Part shown: positions 1-12,315 of the stretch, in pieces
How positions within the stretch are numbered: position 1 is the first letter of the stretch
Layout of the letters: every line of letters begins with the position of its first letter
IMG/VR virus record: IMGVR_UViG_3300029305_005185
Span: 1 to 64,000 of that record
Strand: one strand, 5' to 3'
DNA length: 64,000 nucleotides
Origin: a virus
Lineage: Duplodnaviria > Caudoviricetes
Notes under the pieces: generated by a model
The model's database searches: none
Told to the model about the DNA's origin: nothing
What the model saw: the letters and a program-made list of their open reading frames with translations, nothing else
Made by a program: the position numbers and the translations under genes

Positions 1-202
1 TGATGATAAATTTGTTAAATATAAAACTGATAAAGAAATTTCTTTGTGGTTTCAAGAAGAAATAGAGCTTAATAGAATAAATTTATATTCCATTGATATA
101 GAAAAGTATTTAGATGGCACTATTACACGGCTTTTAGAAGAAAATGCAGAATTAATTTCTAATCATAATAATAATTTATTATATGAATACGAATCTAATT
201 AA
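1..202 (+). CDS. 3' end of hypothetical protein (truncated by window edge)
   Basis: Frame 2 is open from the window start to TAA at 200-202 and overlaps the next ATG at 183. Confidence 0.5.
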   Translation, partial: DDKFVKYKTDKEISLWFQEEIELNRINLYSIDIEKYLDGTITRLLEENAELISNHNNNLLYEYESN

Positions 203-665
203 ACTGTCAAACGATTTATTCTCTTTTAATAATAGTTGCCATCTTGATATAATAAAAGAAGAATATAATCTTAAAGGAACTATCAATTCTCTTTTTAATT
301 CTATTCTACCGCAAGAAAATTTAAAATATTCTTTTTCTTAGAGAGAATCGTTTTATAATAACATTTTAAAACAACTAGAATTAAAATATACTGAAAAAGA
401 AAATATTATTATATTGTTATTTTGTTTGCTTCGTTCTTATGGTAGTGCACTTGAAGAACAAATGGATAATATAATTAAAAAATATTAGATTATTCAAAAT
501 TATAAAAGTACTATAAAATATTTAAATTATATTAAATATCAAGTAGAATTTCAAATATTCTGTTTTATAGTACTTTCTTCTGAAAAAGAATATCCTCAAG
601 AATTTATCTCTTTTATAAAAGAACAAGTAGATAAAGGTAATATTATTTTTAAAAATTATTGTTAA
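183..665 (+). CDS. hypothetical protein (160 aa, 2 in-frame TAG)
   Basis: ATG183 to TAA665 is open except for TAG at 339 and 486; it fills the gap up to the GGAGG RBS of the next gene. Confidence 0.6.
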
Positions 666-680
666 ACTAGGAGGGATTCT

Positions 681-1298
681 ATGGGCTTGCTTGCTGGAGA
701 TAGTATTTCTCCTTCTGATTTTATAACTCTTAAAGAAAAAATTAAAAATATTATGCTTAATAAAAGAGTTTACTACGGTTCATTAGTAGAATACGGTGGA
801 AAAGAATATGATTATGAAAACGATCCAACTACTAATGGAATAATTTACGCTGAGCACCAAAATAAAATTGTTATTCCAATGCGCGCTATAACTACTAATA
901 ATGTAGACGCTATAGCAGAAAAAAATGATAAAATCATTTCTTTGCAAAATATAAGTACTATAATCGACGCTTTTGATGCAAAAAAAGCCACTTCTTCAGT
1001 TAAAGATTGTCAAAACTATTGCAGTGGATTGTGTGTAACTTAGTGTAGTACTGGTTGCACTGGTTGTAGCAATGATTGCGCAAAAAATTGTGGATCAAAT
1101 TGTAGCGGTGGATGTGAAGGATGCGAAGGATGCAGTGGTTGTGGTGGAGCATGTTCAAGTGGATGCACTAGTGAATGCGGTGGCAGCTGCCGTGGATGCA
1201 CTCATTCTTGTACTGGAGGATGTACTTCTGACAATTGTACTAATGGCTGTTTTACTAATTGCTATTCAACATGCTATGGCAAAGCGGTAACAGTTTAA
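681..1298 (+). CDS. Cys-rich CxxxC-repeat protein 1 (205 aa, 24 Cys in C-terminal half, 1 TAG)
   Basis: GGAGG RBS; reading through TAG1041 continues the CxxxC periodicity (CSGLCVT-Q-CSTGCTGCSNDC...) to TAA1298. Confidence 0.85.
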
Positions 1299-1334
1299 TT
1301 TAATAATATTATTACAATTAAGAGGTTAAATATT

Positions 1335-1988
1335 ATGGCAAATAAAGAAATGCAAGCTTCTGATTTTATAGAATTAAAAGAAGCTATTAAAAATGAACTT
1401 CAAAATAGAAGAAAATATTCTCCAAATTTATCAGGAAAAGCAAAAGATTTCCCTGATGGAGACCCAGTAAAAAATGGAAAAGTTCTGGCGCAACATTAGA
1501 ATACAATTGTAGATTAGATAAAAGAAATTACTACAACAAATGTTGATGAAAGAGCAGTTGCGAAAAAAAATAAAGTTCTTTCTTTAAACAATTTGAAAAC
1601 TATTATAAATGGATTAATAGCTTACCCTATTTATAATAATCGTCAAGGCGGATATTGTACTAATAGTACCTGTGCTGGATTATGTTTTAATACTTGTGGT
1701 AATACTTGTGATGATTCTTGCACTGGAACTTGTACTGGCACTTGTACTGGAGAATGTAAAGGTGGCTGTGGTAGCGGTTGTTCTAGCACCTGCACTGGTG
1801 GTTGCTCAGGTGGTTGCAGTGGATGTGGAGGTTGTGACAACACTTGTACTAGTAGCTGTGGAGGAAAAAGATGCGGCTCATGTAGTGGTACATGTAAAAG
1901 TAGTTGCGCGCCTGATAATTGTACAAATAGTTGTATAGTTGTATGCCAAATTACATGTAAAAATAATGGAGGGCCATATAATTCCTAA
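1335..1988 (+). CDS. Cys-rich CxxxC-repeat protein 2 (217 aa, 26 Cys, 2 TAG), paralog of protein 1
   Basis: GAGG RBS, ATG1335; the N-terminus SDFIELKEAIKN...AQH*NTIV aligns with SDFITLKEKIKN...AEHQNKIV of protein 1; TAG at 1497 and 1515. Confidence 0.85.
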
Positions 1989-1997
1989 TTATAAAAT

Positions 1998-2026
1998 TTG
2001 ACAAATCTCAAAATTTCATATATAAT
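1998..2026 (+). promoter_or_regulatory. sigmaA/sigma70-type promoter
   Basis: TTGACA-N17-TATAAT. Confidence 0.8.
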
Positions 2027-2084
2027 ATAAACATAAATAAACGGTCTTGAAAAAGACTTTGAGGAAAAGGAGTAATTAAAACAT

Positions 2085-3590
2085 ATGACTATGTTAAATG
2101 CATTAAAAGGAAACTACAATATCTCTCGTACTGAAAATGGTGGTGTTACTCATAAGTCCACCCTTAATGGTGTACTTGACCTATTTGCTATGGGTGCGGC
2201 ATATCGTAAGCGCACGGATGAAGATTGTATTCTTCTATTTAAGAAGGCATATGATATGAGTCCTAAGTATGCTCTTAAGTGTCTATTCTATATTCGTGAC
2301 GTACGTGGCGGCCAGGGCGAACGCCGTTTCTTCCGCACTTGTATGAAGTGGCTTGCACAGCATGACCCTGTTGCTGTAAAGCGCAACATGAGCTATTTTA
2401 GCGAATATGGTCGTTGGGATGATTTGTATTGTCTTGTTGGAACTTGTCTTGAAAAGGAAGCTTTTGCTATTCTTCGTGACCAGCTTCTACTTGATATGAC
2501 TTGTGAAACTCCTTCTTTGTGCGCAAAGTGGGTAAAGAGCGAAAATACTTCTTCTCATGAATCTCGTTATCTTGCTTCTAAAACTCGCGCTGCACTTGAC
2601 ATGGACCACAAGCATTATCGTAAAATGCTTTCTATCCTGCGCGCTCGCATTAATGTTCTTGAACGTCTAATGTCTGCTAACAAGTGGGAAGAAATCAAGT
2701 TCGATAAGATTCCTTCTAAGGCAGGTTTGATTTACAAGAATGCTTTTGCTCGTCGTGATATCATTAAGGAAAAGTATGCTAAGTTTGCTAAGGATACTAC
2801 CACCAAGGTAAACGCCGCGACTCTTTATCCTTATGAAGTTGTTGAGAAGGCAATCAATAATTCTCGTTATTATTATAATGATACCGACCGCGCCATGATT
2901 AATAAGTATTGGGAGAACCTTACTGATTACTTCAATGGTGCCACTTTCAATGCAATCGCTATGGTTGATACTAGTGGTAGTATGATGGGCACTCCTATGA
3001 ACGTTGCCATTTCTCTTGGTCTGTATTGTGCTGAGCGCATGAAGGGTCCTTTCCACAATCATTACATTTCCTTCAGCTCTCGTCCTCAGTTGATTGAGTG
3101 CCAGGGTATTGATTTTGTGGACAAGGTAAAGAGAATTTATTCTACCAACCTTTGCGAAAATACTAACATTGAAGCCGCGTTTGATATGCTTTTAGATACT
3201 GCTATTCGCAATCGTATTCCTCAGCATGAAATGCCGCAGAATGTTATTGTAATTTCCGACATGGAATTTGACGCCGCAACTAGTGATACTATGGGATGGT
3301 TCTATGGAAGCAGTCGCCGACATAATGGTAGCTCAATGAACTCTGCAAATGCCGAAACCGTAATGGAAGGTGTAGCTCGTAAGTGGGCGCAGCATGGTTA
3401 TGAATGTCCTCATGTTATCTACTGGAATGTAAACGCGCGAAATGATAATATTCCCGCACTTGGTGTTGGACGTATTTCTTTCGTAAGCGGTTTCTCTCCT
3501 AGCATCTTTAGCACCATTATGAGTGGCAAGGATGGAATTGACCTAATGCTTGATAAACTAAATAGTCAGCGTTATGCTCCTATTGAATAA
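2085..3590 (+). CDS. DUF2828-family TROVE-like/vWA protein (Ro60-related)
   Basis: Motifs RDVRGGQGERRFF, YGRWDDL, SLCAKW; vWA MIDAS VDTSGSM, ISDMEFD, IYWNV. Confidence 0.75.
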   Translation: MTMLNALKGNYNISRTENGGVTHKSTLNGVLDLFAMGAAYRKRTDEDCILLFKKAYDMSPKYALKCLFYIRDVRGGQGERRFFRTCMKWLAQHDPVAVKRNMSYFSEYGRWDDLYCLVGTCLEKEAFAILRDQLLLDMTCETPSLCAKWVKSENTSSHESRYLASKTRAALDMDHKHYRKMLSILRARINVLERLMSANKWEEIKFDKIPSKAGLIYKNAFARRDIIKEKYAKFAKDTTTKVNAATLYPYEVVEKAINNSRYYYNDTDRAMINKYWENLTDYFNGATFNAIAMVDTSGSMMGTPMNVAISLGLYCAERMKGPFHNHYISFSSRPQLIECQGIDFVDKVKRIYSTNLCENTNIEAAFDMLLDTAIRNRIPQHEMPQNVIVISDMEFDAATSDTMGWFYGSSRRHNGSSMNSANAETVMEGVARKWAQHGYECPHVIYWNVNARNDNIPALGVGRISFVSGFSPSIFSTIMSGKDGIDLMLDKLNSQRYAPIE

Positions 3591-3596
3591 TAATAC

Positions 3597-3619
3597 GCCC
3601 TGCGAAAGCAGGGCTTTTT
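3597..3619 (+). terminator. intrinsic terminator
   Basis: GCCCTGC-GAAA-GCAGGGC followed by TTTTT. Confidence 0.85.
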
Positions 3620-3641
3620 CGTGTATAAAGAGGTAATTTAT

Positions 3642-5741
3642 ATGGCAAAAAATAAAAGAGGGTATATATCTGAGTTTTACCAATATCCGTTAAGCGGCGG
3701 CCCTTTTGTATATTATCAATCCTTACTTTCTAAACCTTCTTATGGAGCTAAACTTGTAGCTCGTTCTGCTTAGAAATATTTATTTGGAGCATCAAATATT
3801 CTTAACAGAGAAAACTATCATCAAAGAATAAGTCAAGCACTTAATATTCTCAAAGCAAACGCAGATGAAGAAGCTCGCAAAGAAGCCCTATATATGGCCA
3901 CATTGGCTAAAAAATTAGATAAATACGGCGTTGTTGATTTACCAGATATAACAGAAGACCCTTACGGTTTTATTGTAAAATTAAATGAATTTTTACGAGG
4001 AGCAGAATCATTTAAGCAAGAACTCTTAAAAGAAAGAGAGCGTATTCATACTTATCGCACAGCTATAAATAGATATGGTTCCGCGAAAGAAGTAGCAAAA
4101 GTAATTAAAAACGGCGGCGACCAAGATTTTACTTCTGAATAGTTAGCTGATGCTTTACATAATATTTCTAACACCATAGAAGGCCGCAAAGGACAATCAA
4201 GTTCTTTTACAACATATTCTTCTTCTATTCGTGATAATTCTTTAGCAGGTAAAATAGCAGAGGCAGTAATAAGTCGTTTAATTCAACTTCATGGTCCTGA
4301 ATTAATATAGGCTAATGGAAACCAATTTGTATTAAATGGTAGACAGGCTTATGCTATGACCACATTAATTGTAAATGAAATAGAACGCAAAATTATAGCA
4401 AGTGGTGGACAAATTACACAAAAAACTGTTGATAATATTAGAAAATCTATTTTTGATAAAAATGATTCTTCTAGTATAAAACAATATGATAACATTATAA
4501 ATAAATACATGGAAGCTAGTGAATTTCACGCCGAATCTCTTAATTCCTTCACTGATGCTGTTGTAAATAATGACAAATATAAGAAAATGCTAGGTCCAAA
4601 AGGTAAATATGGTCGCGGTATTTTAAACAAACGTATTCGTCCTTTGAAAGAACTTATTTCAAAACAAAAAGTTTCAGAACAAGAAAAGAAAGATATGAAT
4701 ATCGCATTAGAACAATTTAGTCGTGAATGGGCGGCCGCGGCATACGCTGCGCAACCTAAAGTTTATTTTACTGCAGAAGCTGATTTGGGAACTTTGTTTA
4801 AAAAACATGGCGAGGTTTTATTTTCTGGTGGCTATGCTAAAGATGATATTGGCTCAATTGTTGTTTCTTACGAATTTGGAGATGACAAAAAAACCAATTA
4901 GGCATTAAGTCATTTGGAAACAAAAATTAAACAAATTAACAGAAATGCTATGAAAAGTATGCGTTATAAAGAAGGTACTGCAAATGAATTTCTTAATAAT
5001 GCTTTATATACTTTAGAAAGTTTAGAAGAAATGCAACAAGCTTATGAAGAAACTGCCGCTGAGCTTGAAATGAGTATTGAAGAACTAAAAGAATTAGTAC
5101 ATACTTTTACTATACATGGTAACGTAAAAAGCTATGATACCATTGACGCAAAAACAGGTGCGTTTAGCGGCGGTAGTATTGGTAAAAATATTACAGAGCA
5201 ACTCACCAATTTTGCCAACCTTGTTAGTATTGCTGGTTTTGGAGGCGCTTATACAGACTATGATCAAGAATGGTTACTTACCGCAATAATTAACACTGGT
5301 GAAGGATTACTTGGTAGAGGAAATAGAGAAGGGTTAGAAAAATATCTTTCGGCTTTTGCAGGAATGTTACTATTTGATGATGCCTATCTTACTATTAGTG
5401 CTGGTGCAAATTAGTTAGTTAATTCTCTTGGCGGAACAACAGTAGATAAAATCCATTTGTATTCTCTTAATGGAACTATTGTACCTTGCTCTTTCGTTCT
5501 TTATGAAACCTATAAAAATTTAACCAAAGAATTAGCCGCTATTGGAAATGATTTCAGTGGAGAGCATGGAATAAAAGCAACTATTAAAGCGCGTGGTGCT
5601 ATTGGCGGCCCTTTTACTAAACCAGAAGACTGGGCTGCGGAACGTGATGCAGCAATAGCCGCCGCAGACATATAGATTCAATTTATGGGGCATTTTCTTG
5701 GTTTCTTAGATAATCTTGCCCATGCTATGAATCCAGGTTAA
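3642..5741 (+). CDS. large hypothetical protein (699 aa, 6 in-frame TAG)
   Basis: Track ORFs 3894, 4356, 4914 and 5457 share one frame; the only interruptions are TAG at 3771, 4140, 4308, 4899, 5412 and 5673; GAGGT RBS before ATG3642. Confidence 0.8.
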
Positions 5742-5745
5742 TAAT

Positions 5746-5774
5746 TTGACTTTTTCTAAATTTTATTATATAAT
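5746..5774 (+). promoter_or_regulatory. sigmaA-type promoter
   Basis: TTGACT-N17-TATAAT. Confidence 0.75.
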
Positions 5775-5801
5775 AAAAAAAAATAATAAAGGAGAATTCA
5801 A

Positions 5802-6827
5802 ATGAAATTTGAAAACACTGACGTTTGGGGCTTTGAACATGCCCTACGCGGAATGAGGAACCCAAAGGATAGTTGGCATTTAAGTGATAGCAAATATGAT
5901 GAAAATGCTCCTTATGGTTACGCCATTGGTCCTAAAGATATGAAACTCGCCAAAGCTCTTATTCATGGCGGTCCAGAGCATCGCAAGTTTTTGAGACAGA
6001 TTTTTGTTTCTGTAGATATTACTGCTCCACTTTATTGGTGGAAAGAATTTGATACATACAAAGTTGGTACAACTGCCAATTCTTGTAGCACGATGCATAA
6101 GATTACTTCCAAACCAATTACATTAGAAAGTTTTGAAATTGATGATTTAATCAATTGGGATAAGGCTGATAATCTTTGTAAGTATTATTCAAATGATGAC
6201 AACTTTGCTGAAATGACATCGCTTGTAGATTGGCTAGAAAATCTCCGTCTTTCTTATCTTGAATGGAAAGAAAAAGAAAAGAATGCTCAAGATAAGGAAG
6301 AACAAGAACGTTGTGAGTATAATGCCTATCTCATTTGGAAGGAACTTATCCGCTGGCTACCTGAAGGTTGGTTGCAGAAGCGTACTGTAACTATGACCTA
6401 TGAAAATCTTCATGCAATATGTTCTAAATCTCAGCGCTACTTCCATAAGCTAAATGAATGGAGCGGCCGCCGCAATAGTGAATTAGAAAATTTCATTGAA
6501 TGGGTAAGAGAAGAAATTCCTTATTCGGAAGATTTTATTCTTTATCATGAAATTGAAGATGAAATTAAAAAACGTAATGAAAATGTTGAATATGCTAAAA
6601 CTTTCTTGTCTGGCTGTGTACCAATTATAATTTTTGTTGGTCGTAATAACAATACTTTTATAGAACATCATATTGCTCCGCCAAAACAGATTGAATTTGA
6701 TATTTGGTTAGAAGCTATGACGGAAGTGGCTGATAAAAATATTAACGACAAAGAGAAAGAGTACCTCTTTATGATAATGAAAGATAGCGAACTTATAATT
6801 GGATACAAAAAAAATGAGGAAGCCTAA
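5802..6827 (+). CDS. phage ThyX-like (flavin-dependent thymidylate synthase-related) protein
   Basis: ALRGMRNP, HRKFLRQIFVSVDITAPLYWWKEFDTY and SCSTMH resemble a common Firmicutes-phage ThyX-fold family; recognised from memory. Confidence 0.5.
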   Translation: MKFENTDVWGFEHALRGMRNPKDSWHLSDSKYDENAPYGYAIGPKDMKLAKALIHGGPEHRKFLRQIFVSVDITAPLYWWKEFDTYKVGTTANSCSTMHKITSKPITLESFEIDDLINWDKADNLCKYYSNDDNFAEMTSLVDWLENLRLSYLEWKEKEKNAQDKEEQERCEYNAYLIWKELIRWLPEGWLQKRTVTMTYENLHAICSKSQRYFHKLNEWSGRRNSELENFIEWVREEIPYSEDFILYHEIEDEIKKRNENVEYAKTFLSGCVPIIIFVGRNNNTFIEHHIAPPKQIEFDIWLEAMTEVADKNINDKEKEYLFMIMKDSELIIGYKKNEEA

Positions 6828-7553: not shown

Positions 7554-8957
7554 TTAAATTACTTTTATCCAAATTCTTCCATTAACTTTTTTACCATTCC
7601 ATTCTTCATAAGTAGGAACAGCGCTAACGTATCCAATAATACATTCGGGATAATGTAAAACTTCATCTTTGGTCATAATACTTACCGTACCATTTGGTCC
7701 AGTACATACTGGCGCGCCAGCATAATATTCACTGCGATCCTCATTTGGGTATGCTAATACACGACCGCAAAGAGCGATAGGAGTTTTTGCTACATTAGTT
7801 TCGCCAATAAGCATACCATAAGTATCAGATACAATATTACCACCTAACATTAAACGTTCGGTAGAAATGGAAAGAGTATCATCACCATTTTCCACAACTA
7901 CACGTCCAGCAGCAACAGATTTTGTTTCACGAGCTTCAGCATAATCGTTATAAGCGGCGCCAATTAAAATTTTATTTTTTGCATCAAGATACACATCATT
8001 GCTATAATAAACTTTTGTAATAGTCCCATTTTTAATGTCACTATTTAAAACGCCTAAAATTGGCAATTTAGAATCAGTCGTATTTTCTTTTATTTCAATT
8101 TTCGTCTACTAATTTCTTAAATCTGTTATCGCTTTAGCAATAGTATTACTAGTACCTAAATCTTTAGAAGTAAGCGGAATCTAATCTCCTGCAAGTTTTA
8201 TCTACTTCCAAGTTCCATTTGCTGATAAGAAATAGAAAAAATCTGTAGCTCCCATTTGAATATCAGTAGGTTTTTTTACCAAACCCATTTCAGCCGCGTT
8301 GGGAAAATGTTTTAAGTATTTAGAAAGTCTTGCTTCAATACCATTTTCAGGGTCATTTACTTTAATATCTAATTCATCTAATTGAATTTGAGTGCTTTCT
8401 AAAGCAGCATCTAAATTTTTAATCAGTGTTCTTCCGCCTTCATCTACTAAAAAGAATTGTCTGCTTTCTTTACCATAAGTGCTCGTAAAACCTAAACTGC
8501 TAATTCCCTATATTTTTTCTTGTACAGAATCTGTTAAGAATAAAATATCAAAAATAGAACTTCCTTCAAAGTTTAACAACCCAATTTTATCTTCTTCAAT
8601 TAAACTTTCTTTTATTTCTGTTAAAGTAAAGTAATTTTTATCCTATACAACTGTGTCAACAATTTGTTCTATCATAGCATTAGAATCAGCATTTACAACT
8701 GTATAAGCAAAATTCATATCAGGCAAAGTTACTAAATGAGAATTAGTTGTTCCAATGGCAATTTGATACCATTTTTCCATAACCTCTTTTGGCAAATGTA
8801 TTGGTGTTAAATCACCCCATTTACTTTCTCCATCGCCAACTCTTACTTCAGTTAGTCCTTCTTCTATTGCAAACTCTCCTGCAAATAATGTAGGATTTTC
8901 TTTATCAAAAATAATTTTAGGTGCTAATCTTGTTTCTACAAGAATATTCATTGACAT
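7554..8957 (-). CDS. tail fibre/spike with Mtd_N-like N-terminus and C-terminal Peptidase_G2-like intramolecular chaperone (467 aa, 6 TAG)
   Basis: Track ORFs 8643-8966 and 7554-8066 are in frame and the gap contains only TAG stops; N-terminal NPTLFAGEFAIE...RVGDG; C-terminal YNDYAE...GRIWIKV. Confidence 0.75.
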
Positions 8958-8984
8958 TCTTATCACCTCACTTATTATGTGATA

Positions 8985-9359: not shown

Positions 9360-12230
9360 TTAACATACATAAATCCAAATTCTTCCATTTACTTGTATAT
9401 CATCTTCGCCCCAAATGTTATAGTTTGGTATTTCAGAAACGATACCTACAATTCTATCTGGGTAATTTACAATTTCTTCTCTTGTCATACGAGAAATAGT
9501 TCCATTGGGACCAGAACAAACACAATCACCAATAGAATATATTTCGCGTTCTTCATATGGAATAGCAAGTACGCGACCACATACAGCTGTTGGAGTTTTA
9601 CATTTTTCTGTCTAACCAATTGCAAAACCAAATGTATCAGAAACAATCTTACAGGCAGGTTGTAAACGTTGGGTAGTTTTCTTCATAATTCCATCATGGT
9701 CATCACAAATACAATTTCCAGGAACAGCTTTTTCAGAACTACGATATTCTGCATAATCATTATAAACTGCACCATAAATAGTTTTACCATAAACTGTTCC
9801 AGCAACTCCCAAACCACCAGAAATTTTAACCGCACCAGTGGTTGTAGAAGTAGAAGCAGTTGTATTTGAAAAAGTTGTAACGCCTGTAACTGTGCCACCA
9901 GCTAAAGGAAGATAAGCTGTACTATTATATGCATTACTTCCTAAACCTTTAACTGCTACTTCTTTATCTGTTCCATTCGTATTTACTATAATTGTACCAT
10001 TAGAGCCGCCAGTAGAAACTGCACGGACACCAGAATTATAAAATGTTGTACCACTTAATCCAACGCCATTATTCGCACTATACGTAGTATCTGTAAACAC
10101 CGCATTTGCAGGAACAGTTTTATTCAAAGTATACGTAGTAGCAACAGGTACTCCATTACTAAAATAAACTGGCTAAATGGCTGAACCAGCATCAGCATTT
10201 AATTTATTTGCTGAAGTCGCAGCTCCACCGGCAGAAGAAGAACCAGCATAATTATGAGTATGGTTTTTATCTGCTTTTCCAGCTGCAACAGTATTTAAAG
10301 CATCAATAGCATCATTATTAGCATCAATTAAATCACCAAGTTCTTTTAATGTATCGTATGCCGCTCCAGCGCCATTAAGTAATTCGTTCTTAACTGCAAC
10401 CGCAGCACCTGCTGCGTCATAAGCATTACTATCAGTATAAGCGGCACTGCCCAAACCTTTAACAGCTACGTTAGTTGTAGTTCCATTGGTATTTACGGAA
10501 ATAGTACCATTGGTTGTACCAGTTGAAATATTAAGAACACCTTCCCAAGGAACAGTTACATAAGCTTGATTATTAGCATCTAATTTTAAAGCATAATTTT
10601 TATTATTTTCTGCATAACCTGTTTTAATTAAACCAAGTATACTATCAGAAGCAACTGGTTTCCCAATAATGCGATCCCATACTAAATATTTAGATATATG
10701 CGCCTATGATGAATACCAAGTTGGCAAGCCAGAAGTAAAAATAAGTATATCATCTTCGTTACCACCATCATAAGGAGCATAAAAAGTTACGTTTTTATCT
10801 ACTTTTATGCCATTAATATTTATTTCAAGTAATGTTGGCATAGTACAAATCTAATTGTAAGCTTTGGTTAATCTACCGTATGAATCAACAGTAAATTGAG
10901 GAATAGTAAAAGTGCTTTCTGAAGATAAAGAAAGATTTTCTAATTGCCCATAGATACCAGCAATAACACCAGTTTCAGAAGTTTTATTATCTATATATTC
11001 TACCAATTCATCAAATTTAGTATCAATAGAACCAATGGAATCTCCCAAAGTTAATTCCGCGGCGGTTAATATTCTTTGAACATCACCAGATAAATTATCT
11101 TTTGCAATAGTATTTTTTGCTATATATTCATTAGTTATTGAACCAGGAACAAATGAAGCGCTAATTATCTTTGTATTTTCGTCTACATTAACCTAAATCT
11201 AAGAAGCATTCATTTCATGGGTATAAGTATCTATTAAAAAACTAGCATCTATTAAAACTGGAGCAGTGATATTTTTCACATTTAATTGTAATTCAGCCTA
11301 CTTTCCACTTCTTACAATTCTACCATCAGTAAGATAACACTCTAAAGGGACATCTACCATTCCAAATACTTCTCCTTTTTGAGAAAAAGTATATTGAGTT
11401 TTATCCGCATTAGAAGTTAAAGAAACTGCATAATTTCTTTCAATTTCTCCAATTTCTTCTTCTATATTTTCAATTGAAGTTTGATGTTTCTAAATTTCAG
11501 TATCATGCTTTTTATCTTGAGATTCTCTTGCTTCTGTTTCAGTACTAATTAAATTTTTTAATTGACTTTCTAAATTAGTTATTTTTTCATTAAGATTATT
11601 ATCTTCATTTACGTAATTAGTAGCAATAGTATCAACAGCATCTTCAAGAGCTGTCTAACCACTAGTTCTTGTTGCTATCTCAGCATTTAACGAACTTTGC
11701 AAAGAAGATAGAGAAACACCTTCACTTTCACCAGAAAGACTATTAATTTGAGTCTACAAATTTTCAATTGCCAGCTTTCTGATATCTTCTTCATCTTTTA
11801 TCGCACCACTATTAGTATTTATTTTATCATTTAATTCATTATACTAATCAGTCGCATCACTTGCTAAAAGATAAAGACTCTTTTTCTAAAAGCACATTAT
11901 ATCTTTATCGTCTAAACCTTTAACATAAATTTCATTGCCTGCTACAGAAATAGTACCATTTGTTTTACCAGCTGTTATATTTATAGCTCCTGACATTTCA
12001 TTTATAAAAGGTAGATCTTTTAAAGTTTTAACACCATCGCCAATTTTTATTAATTGATAAGAAACCGGTGGCATTTCTATCGCGGCGGCATCTGCTTCAT
12101 TTAAAATATCATATATAATTACTTCTCCCTCATAAGGAATAAAAGTTTCTTCTTTGGTTCTCCAATTAGCCCAAGAGTCATTACGCAACTTGATTCTAAC
12201 ATTATAATATTTATTAAACTATTCGGACAC
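9360..12230 (-). CDS. long tail fibre protein with C-terminal Peptidase_G2-like chaperone (956 aa, many TAG)
   Basis: Four track ORFs are in one frame and the gaps contain only TAG; GTG12230 with GAGGTGA RBS; FIPYEGE...KIGDG N-terminus, three NGTI...VKGL repeats, AGSAI*PVYFSNG, YNDYAE...GRIWIYVC. Confidence 0.8.
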
Positions 12231-12315
12231 AATTCTCACCTCTTTTGGCATTAGTTCCTATAATAGAAGAAGTAAAATAACTTTATCGTCACATTAAAAA
12301 TTTCTAAAACATAAT

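Follow-up and report, generated by a model that had tools for sequence, protein, structure and literature searches.

A predicted CXXX-repeat radical SAM cassette with three cysteine-rich target proteins in the genome of a Caudoviricetes virus

What is the role of two tandem phage genes whose products join a cysteine-free domain to a long ladder of regularly spaced cysteines, and which enzyme might act on them? This question is raised by positions 681 to 1,988 of a 64,000-nucleotide (nt) stretch of viral DNA (hereafter the window), which comprises bases 1-64000 of the IMG/VR record IMGVR_UViG_3300029305_005185, a virus of the Caudoviricetes with a genome of 180,867 nt that is classed as linear and 100% complete. 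The two products (P0001 and P0002), their homologs and their genomic surroundings suggest that they probably, though with room for doubt, belong to a complete CXXX-repeat radical S-adenosylmethionine (SAM) cassette carried by the phage, in which they would be targets two and three of an enzyme that staples intact proteins with thioether bridges. Coordinates with the prefix G000 refer to the full record and all others to the window, unless a related contig is named.

The target proteins and their predicted maturase

Both genes, as open reading frames (ORFs), are complete only when in-frame TAG codons are read through, as the initial annotation had proposed. With TAG read as glutamine (Gln), the products comprise 205 and 217 amino acids (aa), while translation table 11 gives early stops and products of 120 aa (681-1043) and 54 aa (1335-1499). 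An AGGAGG motif is located 7 nt ahead of the ATG of P0001. The two proteins share 39% identity over 212 alignment columns (expectation value (E) 7e-27), and both the alignment and the cysteine (Cys) counts bear out the two-part build first described, with Cys-free N-terminal parts of 109 (P0001) and 107 residues (P0002) followed by tails of 96 and 110 residues containing 24 and 26 Cys, mostly in CxxxC arrangement. The first Cys is residue 110 in P0001, where successive Cys are spaced by four (17 times), three (five times) or five residues (once), and residue 108 in P0002, where spacings of four (19 times), five (three times) and three residues (three times) occur. Cys accounts for 24-26% of the tail residues, histidine occurs 0-1 times per tail, G, S and T are the other abundant tail residues, and the motif DNCTN.C is common to both. 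The ladder unit, C-[S/T]-G-[S/G/T], is the same here and over 955 CxxxC units in 50 family members. While the two annotated paralogs are both real, they are not the only ones; a family profile search of the genome retrieved three (par0, P0001 and P0002), with par0 encoded outside the window, across the junction of the record.

In scans against Pfam, PHROGs and NCBIfam neither P0001 nor P0002 had a significant match (TIGR04117, E 0.41; TIGR04114, E 0.73), and phrog_6085 matches the Cys part at E 1e-4 and 6e-4. The N-domain is modelled with a predicted local distance difference test score (pLDDT) above 90 over residues 11-100, with helices at residues 11-28, 57-70 and 88-100. Neither a Foldseek search of the Protein Data Bank (PDB) at E ≤ 0.001 nor a search of PDB sequences with the family alignment profile produced a match, and in BFVD the domain retrieved three family members only, one of which is named 'TNFR-Cys domain-containing protein'. 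A virion-like N-domain, considered as a candidate, has no structural support from the PDB or BFVD searches. The description of the N-terminal part as a leader is doubtful, given that it forms a confidently folded domain of ~100 aa and that searches of the cassette ORFs matched neither a protease nor an exporter. Several long open reading frames in other frames of the Cys tracts (1072-1290 and 1672-1938 on the plus strand, 1040-1201 and 1643-1843 on the minus strand), rich in V/A/L or P/Q/H, are by-products of the repeats which could mislead gene callers.

A maturase of the CXXX-repeat type had been predicted to lie to the left of the window. A gene of this type is found 1,780 nt upstream of the P0001 gene across the junction of the record, and its product scores 352.5 bits (E 3.3e-105) over positions 2-359 of the 359 positions of TIGR04115 ('radical SAM peptide maturase, CXXX-repeat target family'; cut-off 350). 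In a six-frame search the locus scored 352.8 bits, while none of 14 control genomes exceeded the cut-off. The protein combines a CX3CX2C motif at residues 34-41 (C34/C38/C41) with a full seven-Cys SPASM domain (C280-x12-G-x4-C298; C348-x2-C351-x5-C357-x2-C360; C379). The next-best families are thioether formers, namely PapB (the freyrasin ranthipeptide maturase, NF047865; 165.4 bits against a cut-off of 340) and the SCIFF maturase represented by CteB (TIGR03974; 110.1 bits against 425), which are the best-scoring characterised relatives, and QhpD (107 bits). The nearest solved structure is 5WGG/5WHY (E 5.6e-24), the latter of which is named as CteB in PMC13692751. Residues 7-367 of the phage protein align with residues 82-425 of this chain, the first ~81 residues of which have no phage counterpart, and alignments to most other maturase models begin at profile positions ~64-110. 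By these alignment starts, the phage maturase is devoid of the N-terminal recognition domain.

The gene directly ahead of the maturase is predicted to code for a small helper protein. It matches TIGR04116 from end to end (profile positions 5-89 of 90; 17.5 bits, E 0.0035; cut-off 50) and in the expected position, and is probably a distant TIGR04116 relative, not a member by score. Its model (pLDDT 94.6) comprises one strand, two long helices and a beta-hairpin; an identity as a PqqD-like recognition element is unsupported, with no PDB match.

The phage locus resembles the CXXX-repeat system (NCBIfam TIGR04115 for the maturase, TIGR04116 for an associated protein, TIGR04114 and TIGR04117 for targets; PF27846) in that the maturase and par0 (35.9 bits on TIGR04114; cut-off 20) pass the family cut-offs, a helper of ~90 aa stands ahead of the maturase and Cys occurs at every fourth residue. 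By score, the maturase and one target are members of this system, while P0001, P0002 and the helper do not reach the cut-offs but are clearly homologous. The system is computation-defined, while the version here is phage-borne, with three two-domain targets of 205-245 aa that partly depend on TAG as Gln.

The wider family and its gene neighbourhoods

A word-indexed search with P0001 retrieved 315 proteins at E ≤ 0.01 among 483 candidates, while a full HMMER search with P0002 against 1.84 billion representatives retrieved 270 at E ≤ 0.001, 55 of them at 1e-10 or better. The family members are mostly 160-275 aa in length with the same two-part build, and, judged by these homologs, the P0001 and P0002 frames are real genes of a large family. 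In an alignment of 50 sequences two positions are invariant, an arginine within the N-domain and the Cys that opens the ladder (DC..xCSGLC...C...C.GC). The searched collection also contains products of the genes studied here as truncated under table 11 (P0008, 120 aa, on 8 contigs; P0126, 49 aa). This agrees with the earlier expectation for P0001 that the host code would yield little more than the N-domain, translation stopping after this domain and three Cys. The precomputed domain PF27846, carrying the Atlas name tSAM_targ_Cxxx_rpt ('Modification target Cys-rich repeat domain'), is assigned to many P0001 homologs among the matches listed. The ladder is likewise found in 125 longer proteins of 430-2000 aa (E ≤ 1e-5), where PF27846 accompanies other domains in most of the 120 of 125 listed, and P0257 consists of a GDSL esterase fused to both N-domain and ladder. 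When residues 1-110 of P0001 were compared with the longer proteins, none of 172 candidates scored.

Among GenBank phages, a megablast search with window positions 1-6000 and a tblastn search with P0002 produced no match, while tblastn with P0025 matched one record. P0001 as single query found no loci in the viral contigs, and scans of genome contigs with a narrower family alignment and P0093 led to none that was confirmed. With an alignment of 13 family members, 29 related loci were retrieved from viral contigs. The absence of a radical SAM gene near the target genes or co-occurring with their homologs had been named as evidence against the proposed modification; instead, in 28 of the 29 loci tblastn with this phage's proteins detects a maturase (39-58% identity) at most 3.5 kb downstream of the target, and the 29th locus ends 175 nt past the start of the match. 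The helper is detected by tblastn in 18 of the 29, and an ORF of 92-113 aa occupies the helper slot in 26. In L007, the sole locus found with the maturase as query, the target directly follows the maturase.

The related loci belong mostly to smaller phages. L010 (E 1.4e-86) and L032 (E 1.7e-17) each carry a tail-fibre gene upstream of the cassette, two of five upstream proteins scanned contain collagen repeats, and an endolysin or amidase is encoded downstream in three of four loci tested. The suggested co-occurrence of the N-domain with radical SAM and tail-fibre genes was thus borne out for the former, while tail-fibre genes accompany it in these two loci and do not adjoin the cassette in the phage studied here. 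The two fibre-like genes of the window share a C-terminal domain of 140 residues (48% identity, E 3e-40) and have modules in common with ORFs adjoining the cassette in L008, L009 and L026. Gene position in the relatives and TAG content in this phage are the grounds on which a link to the virion may be proposed; a role as virion components or phage-delivered effectors, as initially suggested, would be speculative.

Matches to the maturase are encoded in 37 GenBank phage records (20 Erwinia, one Salmonella and 16 uncultured faecal), the closest being uncultured human faecal contigs, followed by jumbo phages of Erwinia and Salmonella. Cultured phages are represented among these records solely by Erwinia jumbo phages (Kwan, Wellington, Huxley, Machina and others) and Salmonella phage pSal-SNUABM-04, whose genes show ~24-27% identity and are annotated as 'radical SAM superfamily protein' or 'hypothetical protein'. 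Inteins split the maturase gene at the third Cys of CX3CX2C in related contigs. L028 (11424-13814) contains a continuous ORF of 796 aa with LAGLIDADG_3, Intein_splicing and Hint matches, L008 (11498-13246) an ORF of 582 aa with a mini-intein scoring below the cut-offs, and L009 (11565-13967) a maturase gene in two ORFs of 334 and 307 aa. The tblastn match in L029 has a gap at the same intein position, and the maturase of this phage is without an intein.

A second radical SAM cluster is present in the genome outside the window (G000:164150-168595, equivalent to L005:150-4595). It begins with a GT2 glycosyltransferase gene (four TAG), followed by tandem small ORFs of 126 and 119 aa with S/N/Y/H-rich tails and KCGGE at or near each C-terminus, and then by two radical SAM genes, coding for proteins of 444 aa (one TAG) and 471 aa, the latter matching SPASM. 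The N-terminal 62 residues of the first small ORF align to the N-domain of the ladder family (hhalign probability 91.7%, E 7.6e-7), while the second small ORF gave no alignment to it (probability 0.3%).

The genome junction, the reading of TAG and the cassette limits

The last 126 nt of the record (G000:180742-180867) are identical to window positions 15-140, with the preceding 14 nt differing at a few positions, and the ORF left open where the record ends gives the same peptide as the frame already open where the window begins. The repeat and the ORF continuing across the junction show that the genome is closed on itself; the record, though classed as linear, is a closed circle or a permuted genome, and the repeat looks like an assembly overlap. 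Contigs from four DNA runs matched to window positions 1-2200 are identical short pieces with no variant at the TAG sites, two of which extend leftward beyond window position 2 by 67-68 nt. Six faecal metagenome runs, of animal origin according to their records, contain half or more of the words sampled from the virus. The phage itself encodes NrdD (474.8 bits) and an NrdG-like activase, which fits an anaerobic host suited to oxygen-sensitive chemistry.

The stop codons of all 16 readable genes in the cassette and its neighbourhood are TAA or TGA, the ORF-X piece running off the record end. A transfer RNA (tRNA) with the anticodon CUA is predicted by ARAGORN at G000:150928-151018, among 27 tRNA genes in the whole genome; the same whole-genome scan called neither a Gln tRNA nor a Cys tRNA, despite three proteins with 24-35 Cys. 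In P0002, the stretch AQH-TAG-NTIV aligns with AEHQNKIV in P0001 and AEHQAKIV in par0, placing TAG at a Q position, and P0001 likewise has TAG where P0004, P0005 and P0007, its closest relatives, carry Q (CV[DTE]QCS). The reading of TAG as Gln is therefore supported within the family alignment.

The helper, maturase and par0 genes are readable in either code, while ORF-X, P0003, P0001 and P0002 require TAG to be read as Gln. Among the Gln codons, TAG accounts for 0 of 16 in the first three genes and for 7 of 25 in the next four (one-sided Fisher p = 0.021, on 41 codons only). This partition fits a staged expression, in which the TAG content of P0001 and P0002 would point to late products.

The genes of the cassette follow one another on the plus strand in the order helper, maturase, par0, ORF-X, P0003, P0001 and P0002, preceded by the tRNA array (Table 1). 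Neither ORF-X nor P0003 matches a Pfam, NCBIfam or PHROGs family, and the two show no similarity to each other (E 8). They were also rejected as counterparts of the ORF of 129-191 aa found between target and helper in the relatives (hhalign probability 2.1% for ORF-X and 0.15% for P0003). Within the cassette, scans for promoters and terminators gave nothing beyond the level of shuffled controls. The promoter sequence behind P0002 matches the consensus at 12 of 12 positions; it would open the next unit and so appears to mark the right end of the cassette. The gene that follows (2085-3590) is TAG-free and codes for a protein of 501 aa with DUF2828 and DUF7788 (vWA-like) domains and a match to phrog_850, 'RNA-binding protein' (E 1.8e-127). 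Its guanine-plus-cytosine content is 41%, compared with 20-36% in the TAG-bearing cassette genes upstream, and all nine of its Gln codons are CAG, while its neighbours use CAA.

Table 1. Positions of the cassette genes and associated features in the window or, with the prefix G000, in the full record
Feature	Position	Strand	Remarks
Helper gene, 96 aa	G000:178037-178327	+	Directly ahead of the maturase gene
Radical SAM/SPASM maturase, 435 aa	G000:178320-179627	+	TIGR04115 match
Target paralog par0, 245 aa, 35 Cys, no TAG	G000:179633-180370	+	Follows the maturase gene
ORF-X, ~177 aa, two in-frame TAG	Starts G000:180396; 3' end 2..202	+	Frame across the junction
Junction of the circularly closed record	1..140		Helper, maturase and par0 lie just before, on the + strand
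P0003, 160 aa, two in-frame TAG	183..665	+	Frame with TAG as Gln
Target paralog 1, P0001, 205 aa	681..1298	+	N-domain 681-1007; Cys ladder 1008-1295; in-frame TAG 1041-1043 (codon 121)
Target paralog 2, P0002, 217 aa	1335..1988	+	N-domain 1335-1655; Cys ladder 1656-1985; TAG 1497-1499 and 1515-1517 (codons 55 and 61)
Consensus sigma-70-type promoter, TTGACA-17 nt-TATAAT	1998..2026	+	Consensus match only
Fibre-like gene, 6 TAG	7554-8966	-	No Pfam match
Fibre-like gene, 13 TAG	9360-12251	-	No Pfam match

Mechanism, alternative explanations and significance

By analogy with its nearest characterised relatives, the maturase would abstract a hydrogen from a residue next to a Cys and join the Cys sulfur to the resulting carbon centre, giving non-reducible sulfur-to-carbon thioether bridges along the C-S/T-G-x ladder. 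The folded N-domain may serve as the handle gripped by a maturase that lacks a recognition domain of its own, by the helper, or by both. The product would remain a whole protein of ~22-26 kDa rather than become a cleaved and exported peptide. An intact product is favoured because the N-domain is conserved and folded, no protease or exporter match was obtained, the ladder occurs in longer proteins and P0257 fuses the same modules to an esterase. The weakest step of this scheme would be that the stapled proteins are used late, on the virion or together with it, probably close to the fibres.

The closest tested analogue is CrpC of the CrpA/CrpB/CrpC system of Methanococcus voltae, a three-cluster SPASM enzyme reported to place ranthionine bridges on the 28.8-kDa Cys-rich protein CrpA (PMC13692751, 2026). 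Only with this work was thioether bridging demonstrated for a whole Cys-rich protein; each bridge corresponds to a loss of 2 Da and of one alkylatable thiol, and the modified motifs are CAGM, CAVD, PCAGD and CPLV. The phage and archaeal systems are alike in that a SPASM enzyme is paired with a whole Cys-rich protein with a repetitive C-terminus; the N-terminal domain of CrpA aids engagement, a second protein carries the N-terminus of CrpA, and the product stays a protein with ranthionine thioethers. They differ in that CrpC belongs to TIGR04463, on which the phage maturase scores 65 bits against a cut-off of 525, and contains an RRE domain, while the radical SAM motif of the phage maturase begins at residue 34 with no such domain ahead of it. 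Furthermore, the repeat of CrpA, an archaeal and cellular protein, is described as a 17-residue motif with C-X-X-Q/D, while the phage ladder follows C-S/T-G-x. The phage system would thus be similar in its working, without being a member of that family. PapB and CteB also form Cys thioethers, the PapB kind linking the Cys sulfur to the carbon of a nearby residue (PMC12373016). They act on short peptides containing only a few Cys, while the phage precursors are 205-245 aa long with a folded N-domain.

The literature search, in which most subscription journals and supplements fell outside the coverage, found no paper describing the CXXX-repeat radical SAM family in phages, none combining 'CXXX repeat' with 'radical SAM' or naming TIGR04114, TIGR04116 or PF27846, and none joining SPASM or thioether chemistry with Cys-rich phage proteins. 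TIGR04115 appears in one paper, which by its title and opening abstract lines concerns a pig gut microbiome. Papers retrieved with 'ranthipeptide' and 'phage' (PMC13673991 and PMC12373016) describe no phage-borne system in the passages covered, and the main text of PMC13692751 contains no instance of 'phage', 'viral', 'TIGR04115' or 'CXXX', both occurrences of 'virus' referring to the tobacco etch virus protease.

Several observations weigh against the proposed stapling cassette. Its function is a prediction from gene sequence and order, and the maturase exceeds its cut-off by a margin of only 2.5 bits. P0001 (17.1 bits) and P0002 (10.4 bits) are below the TIGR04114 cut-off, as is the helper for TIGR04116, which itself matches only one of 14 aligned helpers at E ≤ 0.01; the helper model has no PDB match at E ≤ 0.001. 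The Cys ladder is modelled at pLDDT < 50, and its spacers are mostly S, T and G, unlike the modified motifs of CrpA, while the acceptor residue in PapB is aspartate. The cassette of this phage is located between the tRNA array and the DUF2828/DUF7788 gene and not beside fibre genes, the nearest fibre-like gene being 5.6 kb away on the opposite strand, and the code partition is drawn from few codons.

A wider version of the stapling scheme is speculative and rather unlikely to hold in full. It supposes a two-stage use of the cassette set by the code, with the TAG-free helper, maturase and par0 employed before the switch and the TAG-bearing targets and their partners after it, the N-domain acting as a general docking handle for SPASM enzymes and the stapled parts being situated on or near the tail fibres. 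The idea of a general docking handle arises because a related N-terminus heads a Cys-poor small protein beside the two radical SAM genes of the second cluster.

The ladders could alternatively bind metal or iron-sulfur clusters in the manner of metallothioneins, or serve as Fe/S or sulfur stores, with thiols that stay mostly free and an enzyme that makes few or no bridges or performs another reaction; metal loading had also been raised initially. The high Cys content of the tails would suit such a role, which is also considered possible for CrpA, the cluster of which is upregulated on pyrite (PMC13692751). Plain metal binding would, however, have no need of the pairing with a thioether-type SPASM maturase that recurs in the related loci, histidine is nearly absent from the tails, and the bridges of CrpA consume its thiols (PMC13692751). 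Metal binding in place of stapling is therefore unlikely, while partial bridging may go together with metal binding.

A classical ribosomally synthesised and post-translationally modified peptide (RiPP), in which the N-domain is a long leader that is cleaved to release the Cys-rich core as a small antimicrobial or signalling peptide aiding the phage or its host, is distinctly improbable. The layout of leader plus core and the RiPP-type SPASM maturase would agree with it, and ranthipeptides of the SCIFF type are reported to act in quorum sensing (PMC13673991). The cassette, however, does not have the short precursor, cleavable leader and protease or exporter expected of such a system. The N-terminal part of the targets folds confidently and is conserved, Pfam, PHROGs and NCBIfam scans of the cassette ORFs revealed no gene for a protease, a transporter or immunity, the neighbours tested in the relatives are tail-fibre and lysis genes, and the ladder also forms a module inside proteins of 430-1800 aa. 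That the ladders stay unmodified and form disulfide or zinc knots in a virion part, the radical SAM enzyme acting on some other substrate, as the TNFR-Cys name of one BFVD relative and the sub-threshold TIGR04114 scores of P0001 and P0002 might suggest, is hardly credible in view of the target-maturase pairing in 28 of 29 loci, an enzyme family named for CXXX-repeat targets, the lack of a signal peptide in P0001 and P0002 by eye, and the reducing cytoplasm of an anaerobe, in which disulfides are unlikely.

Small peptide natural products are well known to carry thioether bridges made by enzymes. If phages apply this chemistry to their own proteins, as the stapling cassette would imply, it would represent a new kind of post-translational modification of viral proteins. 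The locus adds an enzyme accompanied by three predicted substrates that have diverged from one another, and a single cassette divided into code-neutral and TAG-dependent genes. If the proposed function is true, TIGR04115, a family so far defined by computation only, would gain a biological setting and tractable substrates of 205-245 aa, and the bridges may harden a host-recognition part of the phage against gut proteases and reducing conditions.

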